DNA from: Amoebidium appalachense
Taxonomy: Eukaryota; Protista; Ichthyosporea
Reading direction: 5' to 3'
Assembly (NCBI GenBank): GCA_963693365.1
Contig: CAVNZM010000004.1
Coordinates: forward strand, 6,733,093 to 6,797,092
DNA: 64,000 bases
A model generated the notes under the pieces. That model had not been told where the DNA came from. It worked only from the letters and a program-made list of their open reading frames with translations, and did not search any database. Position 1 is the stretch's first letter. Each line of letters starts with the position of its first letter. Shown here in pieces: positions 1 through 62,522 of this stretch. The translations under genes were made by a program, and so were the position numbers.

Positions 1-40
1 CCAATACAGGTGGGGCCAGAACACACAGGCTAGGGATTAC

Positions 41-4374
<4,334 letters not shown>

Positions 4375-8451: not shown

Positions 8452-18874
<10,423 letters not shown>

Positions 18875-19799: not shown

Positions 19800-20102
19800 C
19801 CTATGAGCTCGGTGTCTCCCCACCAGTTTACGATCAGTTTCAAATGATGATCATACACACCCATAGGCAGCTACATAGGCAGGCACTTTACACCCTGTGT
19901 CAGGCTTGCACAGTAGGCCACACATATGTGTAAAAGCTTACGCACAGCCTACCTTGCTTTGCATATAAGTAGACATTATTATACCACCGCACGCGATTCT
20001 GAGTCCCTCGCGAGGCCCGAGTACGGTGCAGGCTCTAGCGAATTTACTACCACTCGTGGTACACCTTTGCACATACATACACATCACATTTGCAAGCACA
20101 CC

Positions 20103-20594
20103 ATGAGGGTTAGGGTAGAACAAGCAGGCGGGCCGACCATGACTGTGGTTGTGGGCGACCACGCCACTGTGGGTGCGCTCAAGGCACGCCTGCACGAGTC
20201 CCACGGCATTCCCGCCAACCTGCAGACCATCATCTACAACAAGCGAAAACTCGCCGATACAGCGTCTCTCAACAAATACAACAACAACTCCGCATGTGCG
20301 AAAAACTGCGACGGCCAGCCTCAAACCGTCCCCGAGAACCTTGTCATATGCACGTCCCCTGCTGTTGTCTCTTACATGGGCATCGACACGCCTATTGTTG
20401 TGGATGCCGACGGTTATATCGTCGACCAACCACCCGTCGTTTCCAGTAGCAGCAGCAAGCTTGAGCTTCACGAGGACTTTGAAGTTGTGCGCCTGCCCGG
20501 ACGGGAGGCGCCTGCGCAAGAGGAGGAGACTTTGGTGGTCCAGATGGAGGTGAACTTGAAAGGGGGATGTTTTCCGAAATTTCTGTGCTTTTAG
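20103..20594 (+). CDS. Ubiquitin-like protein with internal insertion, LKGG motif and short C-terminal tail (CFPKFLCF); intronless, 163 aa
   Basis: MRVRVEQAGGPTMTVVVGDHATVGALKARLHESHGIPANLQTIIYNKRKLADTASLNKY aligns with ubiquitin residues 1-59; TLVVQMEVNLKGG aligns with TLHLVLRLRGG; paralog at 24596. Confidence 0.8.
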   Translation: MRVRVEQAGGPTMTVVVGDHATVGALKARLHESHGIPANLQTIIYNKRKLADTASLNKYNNNSACAKNCDGQPQTVPENLVICTSPAVVSYMGIDTPIVVDADGYIVDQPPVVSSSSSKLELHEDFEVVRLPGREAPAQEEETLVVQMEVNLKGGCFPKFLCF

Positions 20595-21397: not shown

Positions 21398-22168
21398 ACA
21401 GAACTAACACAAACCACCACTGCAACAACGGCAGCACCCGAGCCCATTATCACGTAAAAAGACAGTTTTCTATATTTTAATACATTTTACAATTGGACTA
21501 TATATGCATTATTTGAAATTAATCAAAATGGGCACGGAAAAAAAATCCGATGATCTGTGCTGATTTGTTGTTGTCCCCCACCCCCCCTCTTACCACCCTC
21601 CCCCCCTTCCCCCCCCCCCCCCCCTTCCCCCGGGCCCCCCCAACACACACACACACACACGCACAACACGGAAGAACCACCACCACAGCAGCAGCAGCTC
21701 CCCAGCCTATTTCCATGACCATCCTTGCTTTATTCCCCTCCTTCATTCTCCCCCGTCCCCTTCTCTCCCATCTTGCCGCAGCTTCCCATGCAATGAGTAT
21801 ATCCCTGTCCCCTCCCCTGCCCCAATTCATGCGCCCAGAGTCATTTTTATCCTCCCCGCCCCCCATTCCCCCCCCCCCCACCATCCCTCTCCCCCCCCCC
21901 CCCCCCCCCCACTATCCCTTTCAGCCCCCCTCCGCCCCTTCCCACTTGTTCCCGCTCTCCCCTTCATATATATTCTGCACACACACACAGTTAACTCTGG
22001 GTCCTGTTCCTCCACCTCGCGTGTGACACCCCCCCCCCCCCCCCCCCCCCTTCCCCCCGAGGTGGGTCATAGCTGCTATAACATAAGAGAAACAGAGAAG
22101 CCAACAAATTTTGGGAAAGAAGGCGCCCACGCAAATAGTTTTTGCCGCCCACGCAAATAGTTTTTGCC

Positions 22169-23597
22169 AGGCTCCGTGGAGATCTCGTGGGTAAAAGGGC
22201 ACCAGTCCAACCAGAAACGACCGGGGCAGAGGATCAACCAGGCCGACAAGGCTGCCAACACCGGCAGAACCCTCCCCCTCCCCCCACCCCTCTACCCCCA
22301 GCCCCAGGAGGGGGCCGATACACCCTTCGACTACAAGGACACCAAATCCCCGGCAACATTCCCGGCGCCCTAAACCGGCTGACCAGGGATTACCTCAAAG
22401 AAAGGGCCGGCAAGACGGAGGCCATGTCCGTCCTCACCGACCCCCGTCTACTCCCAGCCGAGAGGGACCCCTTGAAACTCAACAAGGGCCCAGCCCAGGC
22501 ATCGATTCGGGCCGTAAAGGGCAACACTCGGAGCCTATCACTGGCTATAGGCACCCTACCGACCCTGGCCAGGCTACACCGAGACCACCCGACCATCGTC
22601 ACGGAACTCCAGGTGCCCCAGGTGCAAACAGCACCCGGAGACGACGGCCCACCTCTGGTCCTGCTCGGCACATGCCGAGGAAGCCCCCTCTCTGGCCACG
22701 GCCATCACGGCATGCATCCACAATGTGTTGTACTCCCGTCACCCCAAGACCCCCACGGCCCAACACCGGCAGATAGCCAACACGGCCACCTCCCAGTGTG
22801 AGTGGCTCAAGTGGATCGGAGGGCAGCCCGACCCACAAGACTCTGAGGACATCAAGTGGGTCACACGGGGTTTTTGCCCACGATCCGTGGCGGCCCCTAC
22901 TAACAGACCTCGGCACCACCGAGCCCACGGTACGGGCCATTTTAGCTAAAATAACCGTAGAGATGCAAACTTTTTTCTACACTAAGATATGGACACCACG
23001 AAACACGACCCTCCCACCCACACACCCTAAAATGCACAAACACAAACACTCAAACACCACACGTAAACAGAGACGTAGAGCCCCATCGAAACCCAAACCA
23101 CACACACCCACACAACCCACACACACACAGGCAGCATGCCCAACCTGCAGACACACACATAGAACAACCCAACCATGCAACCCTAGGCTCTTAGACCATT
23201 ACACCGTAGCCACCCAATACGTACAACACCACATACTATTAGGCAGCCACTCACCACCACAAGACCCCAACATACACTTTTCCCCCCCTTTTAAACCCAC
23301 CCACCCCACACCACACACTCCACCACTTTAGATGAACCAATGAGAGCCCAATATTCAAGTTTATTCGCCTGTTCTGAGTGGAGGGGAAGCCTGGTGCTAC
23401 CCACCGGCGTTGGCTGGGGTTAATACCCTGGGCAAAGTGTGTACATATAGTTAGGATTGTTATAGGTGTGTTAGTTTAGCTAATAGCATCGTAGCACCCT
23501 AGCTAGAGTACTGTCGGTGCTGGGTGGAAGACAGTAGTTCCCCAGGGGGGCCCCCAGGGGTACCTCCGGGAACAAAACGGGATAAAATAAACAATAA
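22169..23597 (+). mobile_element. 5'-truncated, frameshifted non-LTR retrotransposon (LINE): RNase H remnant, Cys/His knuckle, structured 3' UTR, A-rich tail
   Basis: ISWVKGHQ...INQADKAA (RNase H C-terminal motif, ~22180-22260); CPRCKQHPETTAHLWSC in a shifted frame (~22614-22665); tail GATAAAATAAACAATAAAAA; TSD AAATAG(T/C)TTTTGCC at 22155-22168 and 23598-23611; homologous 3' end at 61207-61595. Confidence 0.85.
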
Positions 23598-24279
23598 AAA
23601 TAGCTTTTGCCATCAAGCCTGCGTGCGCCCCATTCTTGATGGGCTAACGGCATTCACTGTCAGTAAGCAACAGTATTCATAATGTATTATTATATGCAAA
23701 CTTGGAAGCAGGCAAATGAATACACCAAGAGCACCCATCCATAGGTGGGCTCTGTTTGCGATAAATGATGGGATGGCTGCACATCAGGTCTTAGAAATGA
23801 ATTCGAATACCAAAATTGAACACGGTGATTTCCAGGGCAAGTCTGGAAAATCAATTGTGACACTGCCATCGGCACATCTGGATACTCAACCAAAAGCGGC
23901 GGTGCTGAATAATACTCTCAAAGAAAAAGCTTCATGAACTGTGGCACAGCCGGTCCATGGATGATGCAAAAGACCATCACACATGCCGGACCTACGTATA
24001 CTGTAGGTCATGCATGCGTGTCAAGATCATGAGATGGAGAGGATCCTTTTTTTAGTAGCATCACTGTTTTGGGGGGGCATGGCATTGACCGCATGGGTGT
24101 GAGCAAATTATTTGAAAGCGTGCGTCCCCGTGTCAACCGGTACCGCGGCACACAAAGGCGCATGCACAGACACACACATGCTTTCTGAGGCTCAGCTTGT
24201 CTGGACATGGGCGTGGGCATCACCCGTGTGACGTCACAGCATGACCTCATCTCTGTGTAATCTGTGCAGCCGCACGATG

Positions 24280-24374
24280 ATTGGCTGCTAACAATAGCAC
24301 CAATCAAAACACTTCCGCAAAAACTGCATGCAACTTCTGATTGGTTATTCATTTGGGATGCGCGCGTATATAAA
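24280..24374 (+). promoter_or_regulatory. CCAAT boxes plus TATA box upstream of UBL gene 2
   Basis: ATTGG at 24280 and 24340, CCAAT at 24300, TATATAAA at 24367-24374. Confidence 0.5.
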
Positions 24375-24595
24375 CGAGTGGTTCTAGCAGATGCACTCAT
24401 CAGATCAGTAACAACTCTTCGCAGCACACAAGCACAGAGAACAACTTCAGTATCAGCTTGCACAAAAAGTACCGCGTGTCAAATATCCAGCCGTCTCTTT
24501 TCACCCGAATCTTTTGGTCTTACATCTCAGTAACAACTTTATTCCTCAATAATCTAACTTGCCGTGTCTATTTATTCCCACATCCATCCGCAAAC

Positions 24596-25120
24596 ATGAG
24601 GGTCCGCGTTCAGCAGCATAACCTCGAGGCCATGACCGTTGTCATGGGCGAGAATGCCACCGTCGGCGACCTCAAAGCGCGCATACACGACTGCTACGGC
24701 ATCCCCGCAAACCTCCAGACCCTCTACAAAGGCACAAAAAGACTCTCAGACAGCACTCAGTTGGAAAAATGCAAGGGCAAAGATAGCGAGCAAACAGCAG
24801 TTTATGCACAACCAGACGGGGTTGTGTGTGCGGTACCGACAGCAACAGTGCGCATGGGGAGTGACAGCGCTTCAGCTACCACACGACCAGAGCAGCGAGG
24901 AGACACAAGAGATGAAGGGGTGGAGTTTGAGGTGGTGGAGCTTCCCAAAGTGGGAGGTGAGGAGGTTGGGGAGCAGGATGTTGTTTTGAACCTGCAGGTG
25001 GAGTTGAGGGGTGGGTGCTGTGGGGCATGTGTGGACTGTGTGTGCTGCCCGTGTGAGTGCCTGTGGGATATCATCACCTGTCCGTTTAGGTGCATTGCGG
25101 ACTGCTGCGGGTGCGACTGA
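24596..25120 (+). CDS. Ubiquitin-like protein with internal insertion, LRGG motif and 34-aa Cys-rich tail; intronless, 174 aa
   Basis: MRVRVQQHNLEAMTVVMGENATVGDLKARIHDCYGIPANLQTLYKGTKRLSDSTQLEK fits the ubiquitin fold; ends VLNLQVELRGG-CCGACVDCVCCPCECLWDIITCPFRCIADCCGCD*; paralog of 20103-20594. Confidence 0.82.
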   Translation: MRVRVQQHNLEAMTVVMGENATVGDLKARIHDCYGIPANLQTLYKGTKRLSDSTQLEKCKGKDSEQTAVYAQPDGVVCAVPTATVRMGSDSASATTRPEQRGDTRDEGVEFEVVELPKVGGEEVGEQDVVLNLQVELRGGCCGACVDCVCCPCECLWDIITCPFRCIADCCGCD

Positions 25121-28988: not shown

Positions 28989-29765
28989 ATGCATCCAAGC
29001 GTACTTGTTCTTGCTTTGGCCGCCGCAGCCGCAGCCGCCCCACATCATGTAGCGCGCAGGGAAGGGTCATGGAACACAGGCCTGACGTGGGCAAACAAGG
29101 CCTACCTATTTGGCTCAAACACGGATGGTGTGGACGTGGTGGAGGTCGACACCTTCTATTCCACAGCCGAAGAGATCCAGGGCTACCATAGCAAGGACCA
29201 GCGCGTCATCTGCTACATGAGCGCAGGCACCCTCGAGCAGGGCCGGCCAGACCGCGACCAGGTGCCCAGCTCAGCGCTCAACACGTGGGCACCGTACAAC
29301 GGCGAGCAGTGGTTCAACGTGATGAACTGGCAGGACCTGCAGGGCGTCATGGGCGCACGCATGGACATGGCAAAGGCAAAGGGCTGCGATGCCATCGAGG
29401 CAGACAACATGGACTGCTTCGAATACAACGGCTGTGTGCCGGGCACAAGCATGGGCGCCAAGCAGGCAGCCACCAAGGAGTATGCCCTGTGGTTGGCCTC
29501 CCAGGCCCACCGTCGCGGGATGGCCATCGGTCTGAAGAACGCATTTGAGCTTATTCCCGAATTGGTCAATTCCTTCGACTTTGCCATTAATGAGTCATGC
29601 CCACGGTTCAAGCAGTGCGGTGTGTACAAGGCATTCCAGGCACAGGGCAAGGCCGTGTTTGGTGCCGAGTATTCTCTGAAGGGCGGTGCCGCATGTGGGC
29701 CAGCCCAGGAGAACGGCATCTCCATGTTGTATGAGTCAGGCAACGGATATGCTAGATGCTGGTAG
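28989..29765 (+). CDS. Secreted glycoside hydrolase family 114 (endo-alpha-1,4-galactosaminidase-like), intronless, 258 aa (copy A)
   Basis: Signal-peptide-like MHPSVLVLALAAAAAA; motifs VICYMSAGTLEQGRPD, ARMDMAKAKGCDAIEADNMD, AHRRGMAIGLKNAFELI, FDFAINESC and GKAVFGAEY typical of GH114. Confidence 0.9.
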   Translation: MHPSVLVLALAAAAAAAPHHVARREGSWNTGLTWANKAYLFGSNTDGVDVVEVDTFYSTAEEIQGYHSKDQRVICYMSAGTLEQGRPDRDQVPSSALNTWAPYNGEQWFNVMNWQDLQGVMGARMDMAKAKGCDAIEADNMDCFEYNGCVPGTSMGAKQAATKEYALWLASQAHRRGMAIGLKNAFELIPELVNSFDFAINESCPRFKQCGVYKAFQAQGKAVFGAEYSLKGGAACGPAQENGISMLYESGNGYARCW

Positions 29766-31774: not shown

Positions 31775-35616
<3,842 letters not shown>

Positions 35617-36641: not shown

Positions 36642-37118
36642 TTTTTTTTTTGGTTTTTTTTTGCGTGAGCACAGAGTCTGCGGAAAATTATTAATAATTG
36701 CCCGTATGTACTGAGCGTGAACCCTTCCTGAAACGGTCGAGACTTTTTATCATACAAGTTCACTAGTGTGTCCGACATGGACTACCCCATAAATGAGCAG
36801 AAAATGGCCTCCATTTCCATAAAGCAGCGTGCTGCAGTGCTGCACGAGCAGGCAGCAGGCGCATGCACGCGACTGGGCAATGCATGGGGGACAAGGAGGG
36901 AACGCAATGTGGCATGCCCCATAATGGAATGGTTTTTATTCGATAGTGCTCCTGCAATTTCATGTTTTGATCTTTTTCTCCATAAAACGACGGCTGGCCC
37001 AACTATATATGACAGGTCGCTGATCATACAACGTTGATGAGTCCAAGCGCCTACATTCACCCATTCACCCTAGATCGTAATTCGAGTACCACCCGCTAGT
37101 CTCTAAGGCTTTGTAGGG

Positions 37119-37188
37119 TTTACACACTTTTTATTGCGCCGCGACACTGCCGGAGGCCCAGCCACATTCGACGGCCTACTGCGTTTTC
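37119..37188 (+). repeat. Dispersed ~70-bp repeat (second copy at 62454-62522)
   Basis: TTACACACTTTTTATT...GACACTGCCGG(A/G)GGCCCAGCCAC..TCGACGGCCTACTGCGTTTTCCA at both sites. Confidence 0.7.
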
Positions 37189-39020
37189 CAGCGCAGCCAA
37201 TCAAATGCAGCCAGTGACATATGTACATGTAAGGCAACAATGAGCGCCATCGTAGTATATGACACCCCTATTACATATTATGGGTAAGCAGAGGCTAGCA
37301 TCGGTAGCTCCGAAAGAAAGTTAAGGCACCGGATCACACTATCATACTGTGTCACAATATCATACTGTGATACCCGCTGGCTTACGTAAGTGGCCGGGGC
37401 GGCCTACGACGCTGCGGGACCTCTCCGGCGGGGTCCTTCTGGATGTAATGACCATCAGATCGTTCAATGTGCAGTGACCAATCGAAATGCTCAAACATTT
37501 TAAAGCAAACATTTAACTTCATTGATTAAAAAAGCACGGGCAAGCGGATCATGTCTTCTTTTGACTGGTAGGATGGGCTTACGTCATTTTGAACTAATCA
37601 CCGCTCGTAAAGAAAGATCCGATTACGCGCGATCAAACTACAAGGTATGTTATAGGGCGCAGGGAGACAGCACTCAAAGTGACTAACCACCAGCACCTGT
37701 TCGTGATCAGTTTCTATTAGTTACATTAGAAGAATAGCTTACAGAAGCAACTGTCATGGCACAACAAACCAAACAATTGCATGCAATAACGCGGTTGAGC
37801 TTATTATATGTAGGGGAAAGTGGATGAGCTTTTGGCCTTTAATGACACTGTGCCTAGCAGCCGCTACTGTTGTTTGTCGTACGGTATGAAATGAAACAGC
37901 CGCACTTGAAATCCCTAGCTGTTTGCGCAACCACTTTGTGGTGCTCTGCGAACCAATCGGAAATCGTCCATTGTTTACATTTTTCAGGAACATGTGACGG
38001 TGACATGTCCGGCCAAGTACGCGGCCAGGACTCAGCAAACGCAGTGCCACACGTGCGCGCGCGCGCGGGATCTTAGCGGGGCGAGTGCGTGGACTTAGCC
38101 AACAACAAATAAACCGTTTCACGAACACAGAGACAAAGGCGGAGTACACTTTCACTTTAATTCACATCATAGTGACAATAGCTGTGCCAGTGTTCAAGCA
38201 AGAACATTGTGATCTCGGTGTAGAAGGAAATAGGTTTCCTTTTTGATTTTGTAGTAGAGAGTTGACAACGTGATTGAAGCTTGGCGGCGTTGCTCGTTCT
38301 TGCACACATCACGCCCGTTGAGTTTGTGTTGCACACAATGTTGCCACGCGGTTCACACTAGGCACAAGCAAACACTCGGCAAGAAAAAACCACATCAACT
38401 AAGTTATTCAGACCTAAGGCGACTTTTTCATTGCAGACAGAAGGCATCAAGATGTTTATTATGGCCAACATTGGCACATTTCTGTACTCTCTCGGTTTTT
38501 GTCCCCTCAACTTCGAAGTCCCATATAGCAAAGGGGAGTTATGTGCTTATGTGTAACGAGCAGTGAAGAATAGGAGAGTACCTTAGCCTAGAGAGAAAGA
38601 CAAAAGAAAAGTACACATGTTGTTACTTGTAGACGGAAGGAGGAAAGACTCTGGGTCTACTACGAAGAAGCGGGAAAAAGGAAGATCGGTTCGCGTGTAT
38701 GAGGTGAGGAAAGAAGCTGGATTTGTGTGTGGAGCCTCATAGATTACCGTTGGTATTTGTTTAGGAGGGCTTCCAAATTGGTGGAGGCCTATGTAAGGTA
38801 CCGAGATTTATTACTGAATGTGTGTGCTTGTGACAGAGCCTCTTCATATGTGAGTGCGTGCGTGCGTGCGTGCGTGTGCGTGTGCGTGTGTAGGTGCGCG
38901 CACGTATGTGCACTCATGCGTGTGTGCGTGCCTGAGTGTATTTCTTTTTTTCTTCCTTTCCTTGCCATTGCTGCTCTGCTCTTGTCCGACGCGTTTATCA
39001 GATAGCGTGCACACACACAC

Positions 39021-39467: not shown

Positions 39468-40722
39468 ATGTCCACACCTACCCCCTGGACACCATCCCAA
39501 AACCTAATGCTGACCATTACAGGTCGGATCACCAGCACTCTAGGAATGGGTGGGTGTGTGGCAATACTTGCCCTGTACACCCGCACAAACCACCAAAGGC
39601 GCACAGACAGGCACTGTATCTTGGCTCTGCTCTCTGCCTGTCTGCTTCTCAGTACTTCTGGAAACTTCCTCGGCACGTGGCCCTTTGCCTCTTACACAGT
39701 GTGCTCCTTCCAGGTGCATGCCCTCCCACCCTTCCCCCCCCCCTCCCCCTCCCCCCTCCCCCTCCCCACCCGCCCTCCCCTCCCCCCCCCCCCCCCCCTG
39801 GCACACACACACACACACACATTTCCCCCACTCCCCACCCAACCACCCCTACGTCATCTCCTTTCTCCCATGCCTACCTCCTGTCTTCCCCCCAGCCCCT
39901 CCGGCCGCGTTCCCCCTCCTCTCCTTTTCTCTCCCGCATCCCCTTCCCCCTGCCCCCCTTTCTCTCATCCCCTCTTCCCCTCCTCTGACCTCTCCCCTTT
40001 CTGCCCTTCCAATACACCTTACTAACGGCTGCCACAGATCAATAATTACGTGATACGGCCCTAATATAAACACAATGACCTCCCCCTCCCCCTCCCCCCC
40101 CCCCCCCCCCTGCGGGGGAATCGACACTGCCTACCACGATCCCACTTTACACTGTGTAGTACCTTGCACCTCTCGTCTTTTACAAATGATAGTAATAAAA
40201 ACCTTCCCCCCTCCCCCCACCCTCCCCCCTCGGGCCCCTTGCCCTCCTATCTACCCTGCCTTTTATACTTGAGCCGTGCCACCTCCCTCCCCCCCCCCCC
40301 CCCCCCTCTCCCGCCCGCCTTCCGGCTGCCTGCCCTCACCCTATCCATTCGCTGCCCCCTCCCCTTTCCCCCACCCTACACACACACCAATTTCTTTTCC
40401 ATCCTCCAATCCTCCCCCATCCATCCCCCAATTACTCTCCAGGCACACAATGGAATACTCACACGTTCTGTCGATTTTTTTGCATGTGTGCACGCGCACA
40501 CACACACACACACACACGCGCGTGCGCGCGCCGCACACACACACACATGCATGCGGGCACACAGACACACACACATGCTACCAAGACGTGCACACACACA
40601 CACACACACTACACACACACATCCCCCCTCCCCCACAACACACACACATATCCTCCCCCTTCCCCTCCTCCTTTCCCACCCACCCCCTGGCCACTACCCC
40701 TCCCCCCTCCCCCCCCCTCCCC

Positions 40723-40753
<31 letters not shown>

Positions 40754-41468
40754 ACACAGGGATTCATCATCCAGTTTGCCACAGGCAATGCCCTCTGGAT
40801 CGCCCACCTCTCCACCCACATGATCCTGACAATCCTCTTTGGAATCCACCCTTACCGCCTACGTTTTTACCCGCATTTCGCCTGTCTCGTTTCGTTTGGA
40901 ATCCCCATCTCTACTGGCATCTATTTCTGGATGAAAGGAATGTACGCCCCCGCGGGTCCCTGGTGTTTTGTCGACGCAAAATACACAAAACACCGCCTCG
41001 GACTACTCTGTGTGGCGTGGGTGTGTGGTGGCTATGTTTTTCTCGTGTCTCTGCTCTTTCTCATCCGTGTACACCGCGAGTTCGTATATTTTCGACGACT
41101 GCGGATGTCCCCGTTTATAACTTCGGACGCCAACAAACGCATAGCGTATCAGGTCCTATCGTTTTGCTTCGCTTTTATCCTTATTTGGATACCCCCGTCC
41201 ATCCACCGCATACACAACCTTCTGCACCCGACCCGCCCATCCTTTCTCTTTTCGTTCCTCACCGTTCTAGTGACCCCCCTCGAGGGGTTTTTCAACTTTC
41301 TCGTTTACGTTTTCCCTACTTTGTATCGAAAATACAGCCAGGCAGGGCGGTTTGATCGGTTTGTTTTCGATCTGGACAACGCACCCACGGAGCCCTACGT
41401 GTTTCCACCCACTGTTACACCGAGGCACACAGGATCTGTGCTTCACAGCTCAATATTACAGGTGCAAG

Positions 41469-41500
<32 letters not shown>

Positions 41501-42134
41501 TACCCCCCCCCCCACCATCGGGGCTCCCCTACCCTTGCCCCCTCCCCCCCCCCCCCCCCCTCTCTCCCGCCCTCCTCCCCTATCCCCCCGGCCCCGGGCC
41601 AGTGTTCAAGCCCTTCTTTATTGTCGATGATATCGAATTTCTTACTTCAATTCCTGTGGGATATCTTTCCACAAACACGAGACTGACCTGTTAGTAGTAA
41701 CTAGTACATAGGGGTGTTGCAGTGATATATGGGTGCTTTTGAACCACAGGAAAACACAAAAATTTTCAATTAAATCTGTTGCTAACTAAGCTTATGCCTA
41801 TGCCCCAACCTGGGCCTAGTAAGGCCTTACCATAAAACGTACCCACTTCTCTAACCCTCTCTCTCTCTCTCCCCCCCAACCCCCCCCCCCCCCCCCTCCC
41901 TCCTCCCCCCCGTATCACACACACACGTGCGCGCAAACCCCCCCTCTCCCTCTCATCCTCCACTCCCATTGCCCGGTTCAATCCCACTCACAACCTACCC
42001 TCACCACCCCCTTCCCCTGCCGGAGCACACACACAACAGCAGGAACCCCCCGTTCCTCTTCATCCCTCCACTTTCTCCCTCCCGTTCACCTCCCCCCTCC
42101 CCTCCCCCCCCCTCCCCCCCCTCCCCCCCTCCCC

Positions 42135-52742: not shown

Positions 52743-53416
52743 ACGCATGCACACACCGCTCTGTTGGCGACAGCTCCCTTGGAACCCATGCGGCATGTTA
52801 CCCGCCGGCGTAACATAACTCGGACTATCGGTTTGGCTTTTTTCAAGCCCAAAGCAATGGGTGATACCATATTTCCGGCTGACATCCGGGGGCATAGCTT
52901 TCCGTTCGAAGACGATAAAGTTCCGCCCTAGTAAGCGTGTTACTACCCTGCGGCGTGGGTCAAATCTCATATTTTCCCCTCTGATTGCGAATTCTGCGGC
53001 CTTTGGGACTTAATTCTTTTCAGCTGGTGTAGTATGTTAGCCAGGGAAGTATCGACTTAGGTATCGACGGGGGAGCTTCCTAGAAGCCCCGTCTCCTGAG
53101 TTCCTATCTATATTTTTCTTGCTTCTGCTTACTGCTGCAACTTTAACCCCCGGCCTTTCCCACTGCCCTTGCCTGCATAAGCAACCCTGCTCGTCTCTGA
53201 TCAAGACGGGTGACCTACTCATGTTCAAGTGAAACAGTATCTGAGTTGGGTTTCGTTAACGAGGGGAATAGGTCGAAACTCGGGTACTGTGGATGACGTG
53301 GGCCCCCCCTGAGGATGGGCTCTGCTTATTATGCATCCTCTTTATGTATGGCTTGCATTCTGCATCGTGTTATCCGTTTGTTCTTGTGTACTTCGTACTT
53401 TTTGACGCATTCAAAC
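52743..53416 (+). mobile_element. Longest copy of the poly(C)-associated repeat: ORF C-terminal remnant, 3' region with structured RNA, end at poly(C)
   Basis: Open frame 52743-52931 (..RNITRTIGLAFFKPKAMGDTIFPADI..*), loosely like the post-RT segment of Penelope-like elements (inference). ~52960-53416 is near-identical to 12486-12941 inverted and ends GCATTCAAA-CCCC. Confidence 0.8.
53177..53329 (+). ncRNA. Predicted conserved structured RNA module within the repeat
   Basis: Helices 53177-83/53323-29, 53190-96/53204-10, 53212-17/53269-74, 53218-24/53296-302 and 53234-47/53277-90, with compensatory changes in the copies at 1051-1209 and ~9890-9985. Confidence 0.6.
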
Positions 53417-59756: not shown

Positions 59757-60557
59757 TCACCAGCAGCGGGCGTACCCGTTGCCTGAGCGATAGAGCATGG
59801 AGATGCCGTTATCTGCTGCTGGGCCGCATGCCGCACTCCCCTGCAACGAATACTCAGCACCAAACACGGCCTTGCCCTGTGCAGCAAAGGGTTTGTACAC
59901 ATCGCACTGCTTGAAACGGGGGCACGATTCGTTGACTGCAAAGTCGAAGGCATCCACCAGGTCGGGGATGAGCTCAAATGCGTTCTTCAGACCAATGGCC
60001 ATGCCACGGCGATGAGCCTGGGAGGCCAACCACAGGGCATACTCCTTGGTCGCTGCCTTCTTGGTGGCCATACTTGTGCCCGGCACACACCCGTTGTATT
60101 CGAAGCAGTCCATGTTGTCTGCTTCGATGGCATCACAGTCCTTCGACTTTGCCATGTCCATGCGTGCGCCCATGACGCCCTGCAGGTCCTGCCAGTTCAT
60201 CACGTTGAACCAATGCTCGCCGTTGTACGGTGCCCACGTGCTGAGAGCTGACCCCGGCACCTGGTCGCGGTCTGGCCGTTTCTGCTCGAGGGTACCTGCG
60301 CTCATGTAGCAGACCACCCGCTGGCCGTTGCCCTTGTACTTCTGGATCTCCTCTTCGGAGGCATAGAAGGCGTCGACCTCCACCACGTCCACACCGTCCA
60401 TGTTTGAGCCAAACAGGTAGGCCTTGTTTGCCCACGTCAGGCCTGAGGGCCAGCTGCCACCGCGGCGTGCAATATGGTGGGCCTCGGCGGGCGCTGCGGC
60501 CACGGGGCTGAATGCCGCCATAACGACAAAAAGAGCTGACACTGTGAAAATGCTCAT
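59757..60557 (-). CDS. Secreted glycoside hydrolase family 114, intronless, 266 aa (copy B)
   Basis: Signal-peptide-like MSIFTVSALFVVMAAFSPVAA; mature part highly similar to copy A with EADNMD and FAVNESC motifs. ATG 60557 preferred over the longer ORF start because the TATA and CCAAT elements lie at 60831-61079. Confidence 0.9.
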   Translation of the reverse strand: MSIFTVSALFVVMAAFSPVAAAPAEAHHIARRGGSWPSGLTWANKAYLFGSNMDGVDVVEVDAFYASEEEIQKYKGNGQRVVCYMSAGTLEQKRPDRDQVPGSALSTWAPYNGEHWFNVMNWQDLQGVMGARMDMAKSKDCDAIEADNMDCFEYNGCVPGTSMATKKAATKEYALWLASQAHRRGMAIGLKNAFELIPDLVDAFDFAVNESCPRFKQCDVYKPFAAQGKAVFGAEYSLQGSAACGPAADNGISMLYRSGNGYARCW

Positions 60558-61079: not shown

Positions 61080-61206
61080 CATCTGGGTGGGAGATAGGTA
61101 TGCTGAATACATGACGCTCACAATAAAACCAAACGCTATGATTCTCGTAATATATTAATATATTTCATAGCTCCGGAAAATCTTTTACGACAATATTACC
61201 TGTAAT

Positions 61207-61595
61207 TTTTTTTATTTTATTTATTTTATCACGTTTTGTTCCCGGAAGGCCTTTTCGGGCCCTCTAGGGAAACTACCGTCTACCACACAGCACCGACAGT
61301 ACACTAGTTAGGTGCTATCTATGAGTTCAGCTACAAATCCTTCACAACCTAACTATAAGTACACACTTTGCCCAGGGCTACTACCCCAGCCACGCCGGCA
61401 GGAGGCTCCAGTCCTCCCCTCCATTCAAACCTAGCAATAAACGTTAACCGAGGGCTCACATTGGTCGATCTACAGTTTTGGGAAGTCCTAGGTGTTGTGT
61501 ATAGTGTTTAACATGGGTATGGGTGGATGATGGGGTGTGGTGGTGGTGGGGGGGGGTTGCTGCCTAACATTATGTGCTGTTGTACGTATGTTGTG
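61207..61595 (-). mobile_element. Short 5'-truncated LINE copy (3' UTR and A-rich tail), related to 22169-23597
   Basis: Reverse complement aligns with ~23211-23597 (CCCTGGGCAAAGTGTGTAC, GTACTGTCGGTGCTG, TCCGGGAACAAAACG); TSD ATATTACCTGTA at 61193-61204 and 61596-61607. Confidence 0.85.
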
Positions 61596-62453
61596 ATATT
61601 ACCTGTAATATTACCTGTAAATTATGTTTATATTTTTTCCCTTTATTTTTTGAGTGTACGAGAGAGGGAGGGGTGGTGAGGGGGCCGGAGGAGAAAGCGA
61701 CGATTGCTATTGTGGGCGGCAAAATGTGGCACAAAAAAAAACAAAAAAAAAGAAAAAGAAAAGAAAAAAAAAACGCCATACTTGGACGGGGCTCGGACCG
61801 ATGGCGCCAAGAATCCTGTGTCAAGATGTGTATAAAGCTTTTACCAAAACATCGTTCGAAAACCATGTTTTTTCCCCGCCATCACAGTTTACCAAGGCGT
61901 AACCACAGGATGCAGCTTCTGCGGTTCAGCGTGTAGCTCCCTGTCTAACGGAGGTATCCTCCTGCACAACAGTGAACACTGGCTCCTTCCGGCGTTTTGG
62001 CATTTGCACTTTTGGCCCTGTGCACGGCACTTTGCCCTGCCCGGGAGAGGCCCAGGAGGACTTTGTCATCTGGAGTCACATACCGCGCATAGGACTCCAT
62101 CGCACTGTGCTACAAACGTAGCCCGCCCCGGTGGGCATACAAAAGCGGCCCTGTACGCGTATTCATGACTCGTGACACATATGCATGATATGGAACAAAA
62201 ACTACACAACACGCGCATATATATGCAATGCCGTGCATGTGCATATTATGCATGTGCCCAGCCATTGAAGCTTACATGCATGTGCATGCATGGCTTGGAA
62301 GTTGTGACAGCTACTGTACTTGAGTTTTCCGTCAATCAGGGCGTTTTCCCGGATGGCAGATTAGCCATCATATGATGATAATAAAATTGCCCAAGGTCGG
62401 TGGTACCATTTAGCAAAATTACGCTACGATCTTATAAGACTCAATAAATTGGC

Positions 62454-62522
62454 TTACACACTTTTTATTACGTGGACACTGCCGGGGGCCCAGCCACTCT
62501 CGACGGCCTACTGCGTTTTCCA
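62454..62522 (+). repeat. Dispersed ~70-bp repeat (first copy at 37119-37188)
   Basis: Direct alignment with 37119-37188; followed by short TGCATACTC tandem units. Confidence 0.7.

Follow-up and report, generated by a model that had tools for sequence, protein, structure and literature searches.

We analysed a window of 64,000 nucleotides of forward-strand DNA from the ichthyosporean Amoebidium appalachense (GenBank assembly GCA_963693365.1, contig CAVNZM010000004.1, positions 6,733,093 to 6,797,092), numbered from its first base, and found an RNA module present in three complete copies and as fragments. We read this module as a split-core, permuted hammerhead ribozyme, predicted from its sequence to cut the RNA of a likely Penelope-like retroelement after U53247, and give this reading a probability of about 0.7. 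The RNA structure is real and conserved, and most likely represents a novel architecture within the hammerheads rather than a class of its own. The original prediction, made from the letters of the window, had described a dispersed retro-like repeat carrying a conserved pseudoknotted RNA, which we confirm, the module being the 3' end of a 5'-truncated repeat. It had also seen hammerhead words without hammerhead topology; here our result differs, as the words form a complete core in a non-circularly permuted order near that of type SGC.

Hammerhead core

Along the RNA the core blocks follow in the order cleavage site (53247), GAAA (53275) and CUGAnGA (53309), abbreviated S, G and C (Table 1). 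The GUU site occupies 53245-53247, the A15.1-U16.1 pair is carried by stem III, and the C3-A9 core stands directly 3' of the stem I strand in 3/3 complete copies. G12, A13, A14, A15.1-U16.1 and the NUH site are all in place in these copies, G12 being replaced by C in the partial copy near 9.9 kb. Stems I, II and III measure 3-4, 5-6 and 9-13 bp across copies. The long stem seems to end in a U-A "pair", but if the module is a hammerhead this U is the cleavage nucleotide, unpaired and opposite A14.

A descriptor for permuted hammerheads matched all three complete copies and none of 60 dinucleotide shuffles of the window; among 86 loci pre-selected for the 3' half it gave two weak matches, which are one sequence seen twice. 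Between the two main subfamilies, named after the copies near 1 kb and 53 kb, the core was identical at 14/14 positions and the G/A bases of a predicted kink turn (k-turn) at 4/4, against 55/86 other positions (Fisher p 0.0035 for the core alone). It is extremely improbable that the helices and motifs reflect chance or simple shared ancestry in a young repeat. The window does hold few independent copies, and the covariation test is not significant; against this stand the shuffles, the invariance of the core amid unalignable flanks, the lack of a convincing 5' half in any of 73 metagenome matches to the 3' half, and the failure of all 70 viral matches to the 5' half to fit the model. All loci retained in the pattern scans (13 viral, 73 metagenome and 70 viral; prokaryote genomes lay outside the scan) were judged to be chance.

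The Rfam search that had been suggested as a check named no family at threshold over the module: over the whole window it returned low-complexity matches alone, and a local rerun gave three matches, all below threshold. Hammerhead_1 (type I) aligns weakly to the module, at 14.2 bits against a threshold of 34, in the register of the split stem II. No GAAA was found within 80 nt 3' of A9 in 5/5 copies checked, and assignment of the predicted ribozyme to hammerhead types I-III is excluded. The lack of an Rfam family at threshold and a topology that fits none of types I-III could also be taken, as in the original prediction, to signal a new self-cleaving class sharing just short words with hammerheads. 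We regard this as very improbable: permuted hammerheads have been described before, and each hammerhead core base of the module is in register with the three stems. We also considered HDV-like, twister, pistol, hatchet, hairpin, glmS and SECIS folds and dropped them on grounds of topology; none was given by Rfam here.

Predicted secondary structure

The helices named in the original prediction are present in the sequence, and the GACC/GGTC helix for which it had proposed a pseudoknot corresponds to the split stem II, which crosses the long stem. Stems I and II require pseudoknot pairing: in each, the apical loop of a long rod pairs with the multiloop at the rod base. Two helices interrupt the path from A9 to G10.1, the closing helix (helices a and b, which lie between these bases in hammerhead numbering and are invariant in 3/3 complete copies) and hairpin c, and a k-turn consensus joins helix e to stem III. 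Helix e is the counterpart of the stem I-II interaction helix of type SGC. The sequence definition of a k-turn (canonical helix, 3-nt bulge, tandem G.A and A.G) applies to 3/3 complete copies, the 1-kb copy keeping the k-turn sequence with U.U at 3b.3n. The GATGAC motif noted earlier is indeed conserved, not as a catalytic word but as the unbulged strand of the k-turn plus helix e.

The nested rod dominates the predicted folding ensemble in a program that has no representation of pseudoknots, and single-strand folding z-scores are weak (-1.4 and -2.2). Two-copy cofolding was uninformative, as any hairpin gains energy. In the 12.6-kb copy, a single mismatch in the outer part of the long stem is left uncompensated. 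A further alternative partner for the stem II 3' strand is the loop of hairpin c (GATC at 53199-53202, with the T before it), with which it can form 4 bp.

Covariation and sequence variants

In the module alignment, both-sided pair changes occur in stem II (UA/CG), helix e (UG/AU, with two further one-sided changes) and stem III (AU/GC). A fourth, in stem I (G53250-C53306 versus A1134-U1074), was read straight from the sequence because the module alignment misaligns it. Both-sided changes are thus seen in stems I, II, III and e, but on four copies covariation does not reach significance. The closing ATAAGCA/TGCTTAT helix and the CTCGTCT/AGACGGG hairpin exist as described but never vary, so that covariation is silent on both.

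Variants were collected from contigs matching the module. The stem II variants T53216>C and A53270>G occur at matched shares, ~3-4% of depth, in runs X1 and X3. Stem III variant G53282>A turns U.G into U-A, stem I variant C53306>T keeps its pair as G.U, C53197>T lengthens the stem of hairpin c, and T53219>C keeps pairing in helix e, in which G53298>T breaks one pair. Common variants mostly preserve pairs, and none of those listed falls in the core. Two contigs of run X14 (guessed to be RNA) end at 53249, near the predicted cut; these ends were attributed to an assembly branch, because the subfamilies diverge at 53250, and were not used as evidence.

Copies of the module

The four copies located by the original prediction are all present, and a model built from four copies also finds a 3' fragment at 1504-1546 (-) and the decayed copy at 13912-13993 (-). 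The 53-kb and 12.6-kb copies are 96.7% alike over 490 bases; the 1-kb and 53-kb subfamilies can be aligned by BLAST only over 53167-53339, at 79%, in keeping with the poor alignability outside the module reported before. All window copies are 5'-truncated and end at a C run. The family is abundant, with 3731 contigs of run X1 and 8246 of run X3 matching a 461-base stretch; these counts are not copy numbers. The matching contigs include further subfamilies, one with a stem III arm 4 bp shorter and one with U replacing C at position 15.2.

Exons of a mitochondrial aconitase lie at 1-4000 (-), and the 1-kb copy and its tandem fragment sit between such aconitase-like exons on the same strand, so that the predicted ribozyme would be in the pre-mRNA. 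One aconitase exon shows 82-91% identity to at least 120 proteins, and no more than 88% to those from named animals and chytrids.

Comparison with known hammerheads and k-turns

Hammerheads of type SGC (HRIMA-1 and variants), which have the S-G-C order with a stem I-II helix, were shown to cleave (Eckert et al., 2023, PMC10085705). With these the module shares the order of site, GAAA and CUGAnGA, pseudoknotted stems I and II, full core conservation and a helix (here helix e) that connects stems I and II at their outer ends. It differs from them in that its best stem II strand lies at its 5' end and not beside CUGAnGA, two helices separate A9 from G10.1, both strands pass from the interaction helix to stem III through a predicted k-turn, and a hairpin replaces the short linker.

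Block C has two possible stem II partners, a strong, co-varying one 5' of block S and a weak, G.U-rich one at a 2-nt skip from A9. With the latter, the module would be an ordinary type-SGC hammerhead whose stem II strand comes just after A9, the 5' GACC pairing being an alternative conformer. Such a contiguous stem II could form 4 bp in the 53-kb and 12.6-kb copies and 6 bp in the 1-kb copy, its 2-nt skip falls within the limit allowed by Eckert et al. (PMC10085705), and variant A53270>G would lengthen it too. However, half of its pairs are G.U, and its duplex energies of -2.2 and -5.1 kcal/mol are 3.6-4.5 kcal/mol weaker than those of the split stem II (-6.7 and -8.7 kcal/mol, respectively). 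The 5' strand of the split stem II co-varies, which favours the split form, and the Octopus Naiad ends described below offer, by eye, 2 bp after A9 against 6 Watson-Crick pairs for the split strand. We therefore consider a contiguous stem II quite unlikely and retain the split-core hammerhead.

As in the hammerheads found in the pseudo-long terminal repeats (pseudo-LTRs) of Penelope-like elements (Cervera and de la Pena, 2014, PMC4209133; Frangieh et al., 2024, PMC11167929), the core of the module lies in the terminal repeat of a retroelement that is 5'-truncated and partly tandem; further points in common are an extra base between A9 and G10.1 and a proposed action as dimers. Pseudo-LTR hammerheads are of type I or minimal, keep the canonical order and dimerise through stem III, whereas the permuted module, with its long stem III, would do so by loop-to-base contact.

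The predicted k-turn resembles the standard k-turn Kt-7 in its 3-nt bulge followed by G.A and A.G, and at 3b.3n the 53-kb subfamily has A.G, the pair thanks to which metal ions suffice for Kt-7 to fold (Huang and Lilley, 2016, PMC5061560). Unlike Kt-7, the 1-kb subfamily has U.U at this position; the kink of the module is a prediction. We found no paper on a split-core or k-turn hammerhead in retroelements; subscription papers lay outside this coverage, and the supplements of PMC10085705 may contain SGC variants with insertions.

Host element and Naiad 3' ends

Penelope-like elements with an N-terminal endonuclease show 5' truncation, partial tandem pseudo-LTRs and microsatellite insertion, with a bias to (CA)n and (C)n for Chlamys (Craig et al., 2021, PMC8557442). 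The window copies match these Penelope-like traits in their 5' truncation, partial tandem and C-run insertion, and we regard the host element as likely Penelope-like, an assignment drawn from its insertion pattern and not from an open reading frame (ORF). The window holds no reverse transcriptase (RT) or endonuclease ORF for the element, and the truncated copies contain no N-terminal GIY-YIG, CxC or telomerase-like RT. Positions 52758-52892 (+) read as a 45-aa remnant, whose spacing is like that of the pre-CxC motif of Naiad/Chlamys proteins by eye alone; it had no credible match in the database or among longer proteins, its atlas scores were below 0.9, and no CxC or RT lies downstream of it. 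Two repeat-protein matches to the remnant were rejected (P0002 being the one inspected). The link to Naiad/Chlamys drawn in the original prediction was thus not confirmed, and the element may belong to one of these clades or to another.

Some Naiad 3' ends are labelled 'HHR_half_core', with core halves 35-50 nt apart that fit no descriptor (PMC8557442), and Craig et al. did not describe the fold reported here. In the supplement of that paper, we recognised by eye the full architecture, with different stem sequences, in the 3' ends of Naiad_Ovul and of the near-identical entry that precedes it (Octopus). These ends have a 6-bp split stem II, a 5-bp stem I, a 5-bp stem III, a GUA site, a k-turn of reversed polarity, and a hairpin plus a short closing helix between A9 and G10.1. 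Inspected in the same way, Naiad_Esco has the S-G-C order as well as stems I, III and e; its stem II is poor, and no clear k-turn is present. The S-G-C order was seen in 3/6 Naiad ends, two of them near-identical, and in 0/2 Chlamys ends; this sample is not random, because the two Octopus ends came from a motif search and Esco from its half-core label. Compared with the module, the Octopus ends have a stem III of 5 bp in place of 13, a 2-nt linker in place of the linker hairpin and the reversed k-turn polarity, and this version is probably able to fold within one copy. The earlier idea of a functional substitute holds up in that the module is a good candidate for the ribozyme that Penelope-like elements with an N-terminal endonuclease were reported to lack.

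Proposed mechanism and points against it

In the mechanism that we propose, the apical loop (stem I 5' strand, stem II 3' strand and GAAA) would dock on the basal multiloop, which would contribute the stem II 5' strand, the stem I 3' strand and CUGAGGA, and the core assembled in this way would cut after U53247. Cleavage may trim or unit-size tandem or read-through transcripts, as has been proposed for pseudo-LTR hammerheads. The stem III arm counts 16 layers against the 9 bp of helix e, and seems so much longer that, once every helix has formed, the loop would probably fall short of the base of its own copy.

Several observations weigh against the hammerhead reading. In a rough geometry estimate that assumes simple A-form helices, 2.8 A per pair, a bend of 50 or 0 degrees and coaxial stacking of stems II and III, helix e and stem II of the same complete copy end up 39-53 A apart, too far for a linker of 0-2 bases, so that either two copies would have to swap loops or helix e would have to open. 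The loops of hairpins c and h are both palindromic; palindromes of at least 8 nt occur in ~43% of shuffled modules and, being this common by chance, lend the dimer idea weak support. Stem I has just 3-4 bp (2 bp in the decayed 9.9-kb copy), and the weaker contiguous stem II is also possible. The covariation score on four sequences is not significant, 42 of 500 shuffles reaching it, and the absence of core variants is weak by itself because few sites vary at all. By eye, the fold was not seen in Naiad_Omin, Naiad_Adux, Naiad-1_Skow and two Chlamys ends (tObl) of the published supplement. According to Eckert et al. (PMC10085705), no more than 1-2 extra bases are found beside CUGAnGA in known hammerheads, which leaves the split core without a tested precedent. 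In PAc, a Penelope element of the anole, the hammerhead required protein in order to cut, and insertion in vitro did not depend on cleavage (PMC11167929).

Genomic copies do not stop at the predicted cut but run on to a 3' end ~150 nt downstream, so that uncut RNA must be copied. Together with PAc insertion, the dominance of the nested rod and a cis catalytic fold that looks strained, this could point to a non-catalytic handle, in which a k-turn rod is bound by the element RT or a host L7Ae-family protein and the hammerhead bases are a relic or a protein-binding surface. We think this unlikely, as all catalytic positions and two pseudoknot helices are perfectly kept between diverged subfamilies, and the same core order with different stems in Naiad ends is hard to explain without catalysis; the dominance of the rod is itself weakened by the inability of the program to represent pseudoknots.

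For a catalytic module, we tentatively suggest, at somewhat less than even odds, that docking takes place between two copies or that opening of helix e releases the module from an off state, the k-turn rod. More speculative is a fourth-block architecture, in which a core split at A9-G10.1 by a two-helix domain and braced by the k-turn would be active only as two copies joined loop-to-base in a k-turn-shaped ring; tandem transcripts would be cut and single copies spared, and this would be the ribozyme that N-terminal-endonuclease Penelope-like elements reportedly lack. If true, a split core would overturn the assumption of an uninterruptible CUGAnGA block, the basis of the six-permutation scheme and of descriptors used for counting hammerheads, and would give a concrete answer to why Naiad/Chlamys elements seem to be without the ribozyme of other Penelope-like elements. 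A k-turn could also be what joins stem III to the stem I-II helix, whose distant ends Eckert et al. left unexplained. If real, a ribozyme active only in two copies would count tandem repeats naturally and provide a component for the design of engineered RNAs.

Table 1. Coordinates in the window of the module, its predicted parts and its copies
Feature	Coordinates	Strand	Remarks
Whole module, type copy, 53-kb subfamily	53177..53329	+	Sequence, alignment, model
Closing helices a and b, 5' strands	53177..53187	+	a: 53177-83 with 53323-29; b: 53185-87 with 53317-19
Hairpin c, second helix inserted between A9 and G10.1	53190..53210	+	Loop with palindrome TGATCA
Stem II, 5' strand	53212..53217	+	G10.1 = 53212; pseudoknot with 53269-53274 (C11.1 = 53274); 6 Watson-Crick pairs
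Helix e, 5' strand	53218..53227	+	9 bp, one bulged base; pairs with 53294-53302
Predicted k-turn	53228..53233	+	3-nt bulge 53228-30; G.A and A.G (53231-32 with 53293, 53292); 3b.3n = A.G
Stem III, 5' strand	53234..53247	+	13 bp with 53278-53290; U16.1 = 53246, U17 = 53247; predicted cut 53247/53248
Stem I, 5' strand	53248..53250	+	Second pseudoknot, pairs with 53306-53308; 4 bp in 1-kb copy
Linker hairpin h between stems I and II	53251..53268	+	Centred on a 10-nt palindrome; a different 10-nt palindrome in 1-kb copy
Core G12 A13 A14 A15.1, GAAA	53275..53278	+	Follows stem II
Core C3-A9, CUGAGGA	53309..53315	+	Directly 3' of stem I strand 53306-08
Host element of type copy, 5'-truncated	52758..53395	+	5' boundary approximate; end = C run
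12.6-kb copy, second of 53-kb subfamily	12452..12941	-	Flanked by C runs; module 12572-12724; predicted cut 12654/12653
1-kb subfamily copy	931..1381	-	Module 1051-1209; predicted cut 1137/1136
5'-truncated copy, pseudo-LTR-like	1384..1530	-	Head-to-tail partial tandem with 1-kb copy
9.9-kb copy, third subfamily, 5'-truncated	9806..9982	-	Partial module 9890-9982; G12 to C; predicted inactive
Decayed divergent copy	13912..13993	-	Stem III, GAAAC and k-turn strand recognisable; no CUGAnGA
Tail-only copy, 1-kb subfamily	17015..17117	-	BLAST

Other features of the window

The DNA of the window is eukaryotic and contains introns, microsatellites, aconitase exons and GH114 genes. A pair of paralogous genes, both intronless and with DNA that is 86% alike, lies at 28989-29765 (+) and 59757-60551 (-), the latter matching GH114 glycoside hydrolase (E 3.6e-38). 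At 19917-20594 (+), 24374-25120 (+), 33021-34631 (-) and 40199-41686 (+) are what we take, from the look of their translations, to be ubiquitin-like-domain ORFs and two paralogous membrane-receptor-like ORFs. A short GC-rich dispersed repeat occurs at 37117-37190 and 62451-62522 (88% alike), with an AATAAA-type signal at its minus-strand end. The 3' part of a broken non-LTR-like element is found at 22139-23600 (+) and 61205-61589 (-), with a weak zf-RVT match (Pfam E 0.13); its 3' untranslated region shares with a 74% homolog a hairpin whose loop can pair just upstream, a possible H-type pseudoknot, and a second hairpin before the A-rich tail.
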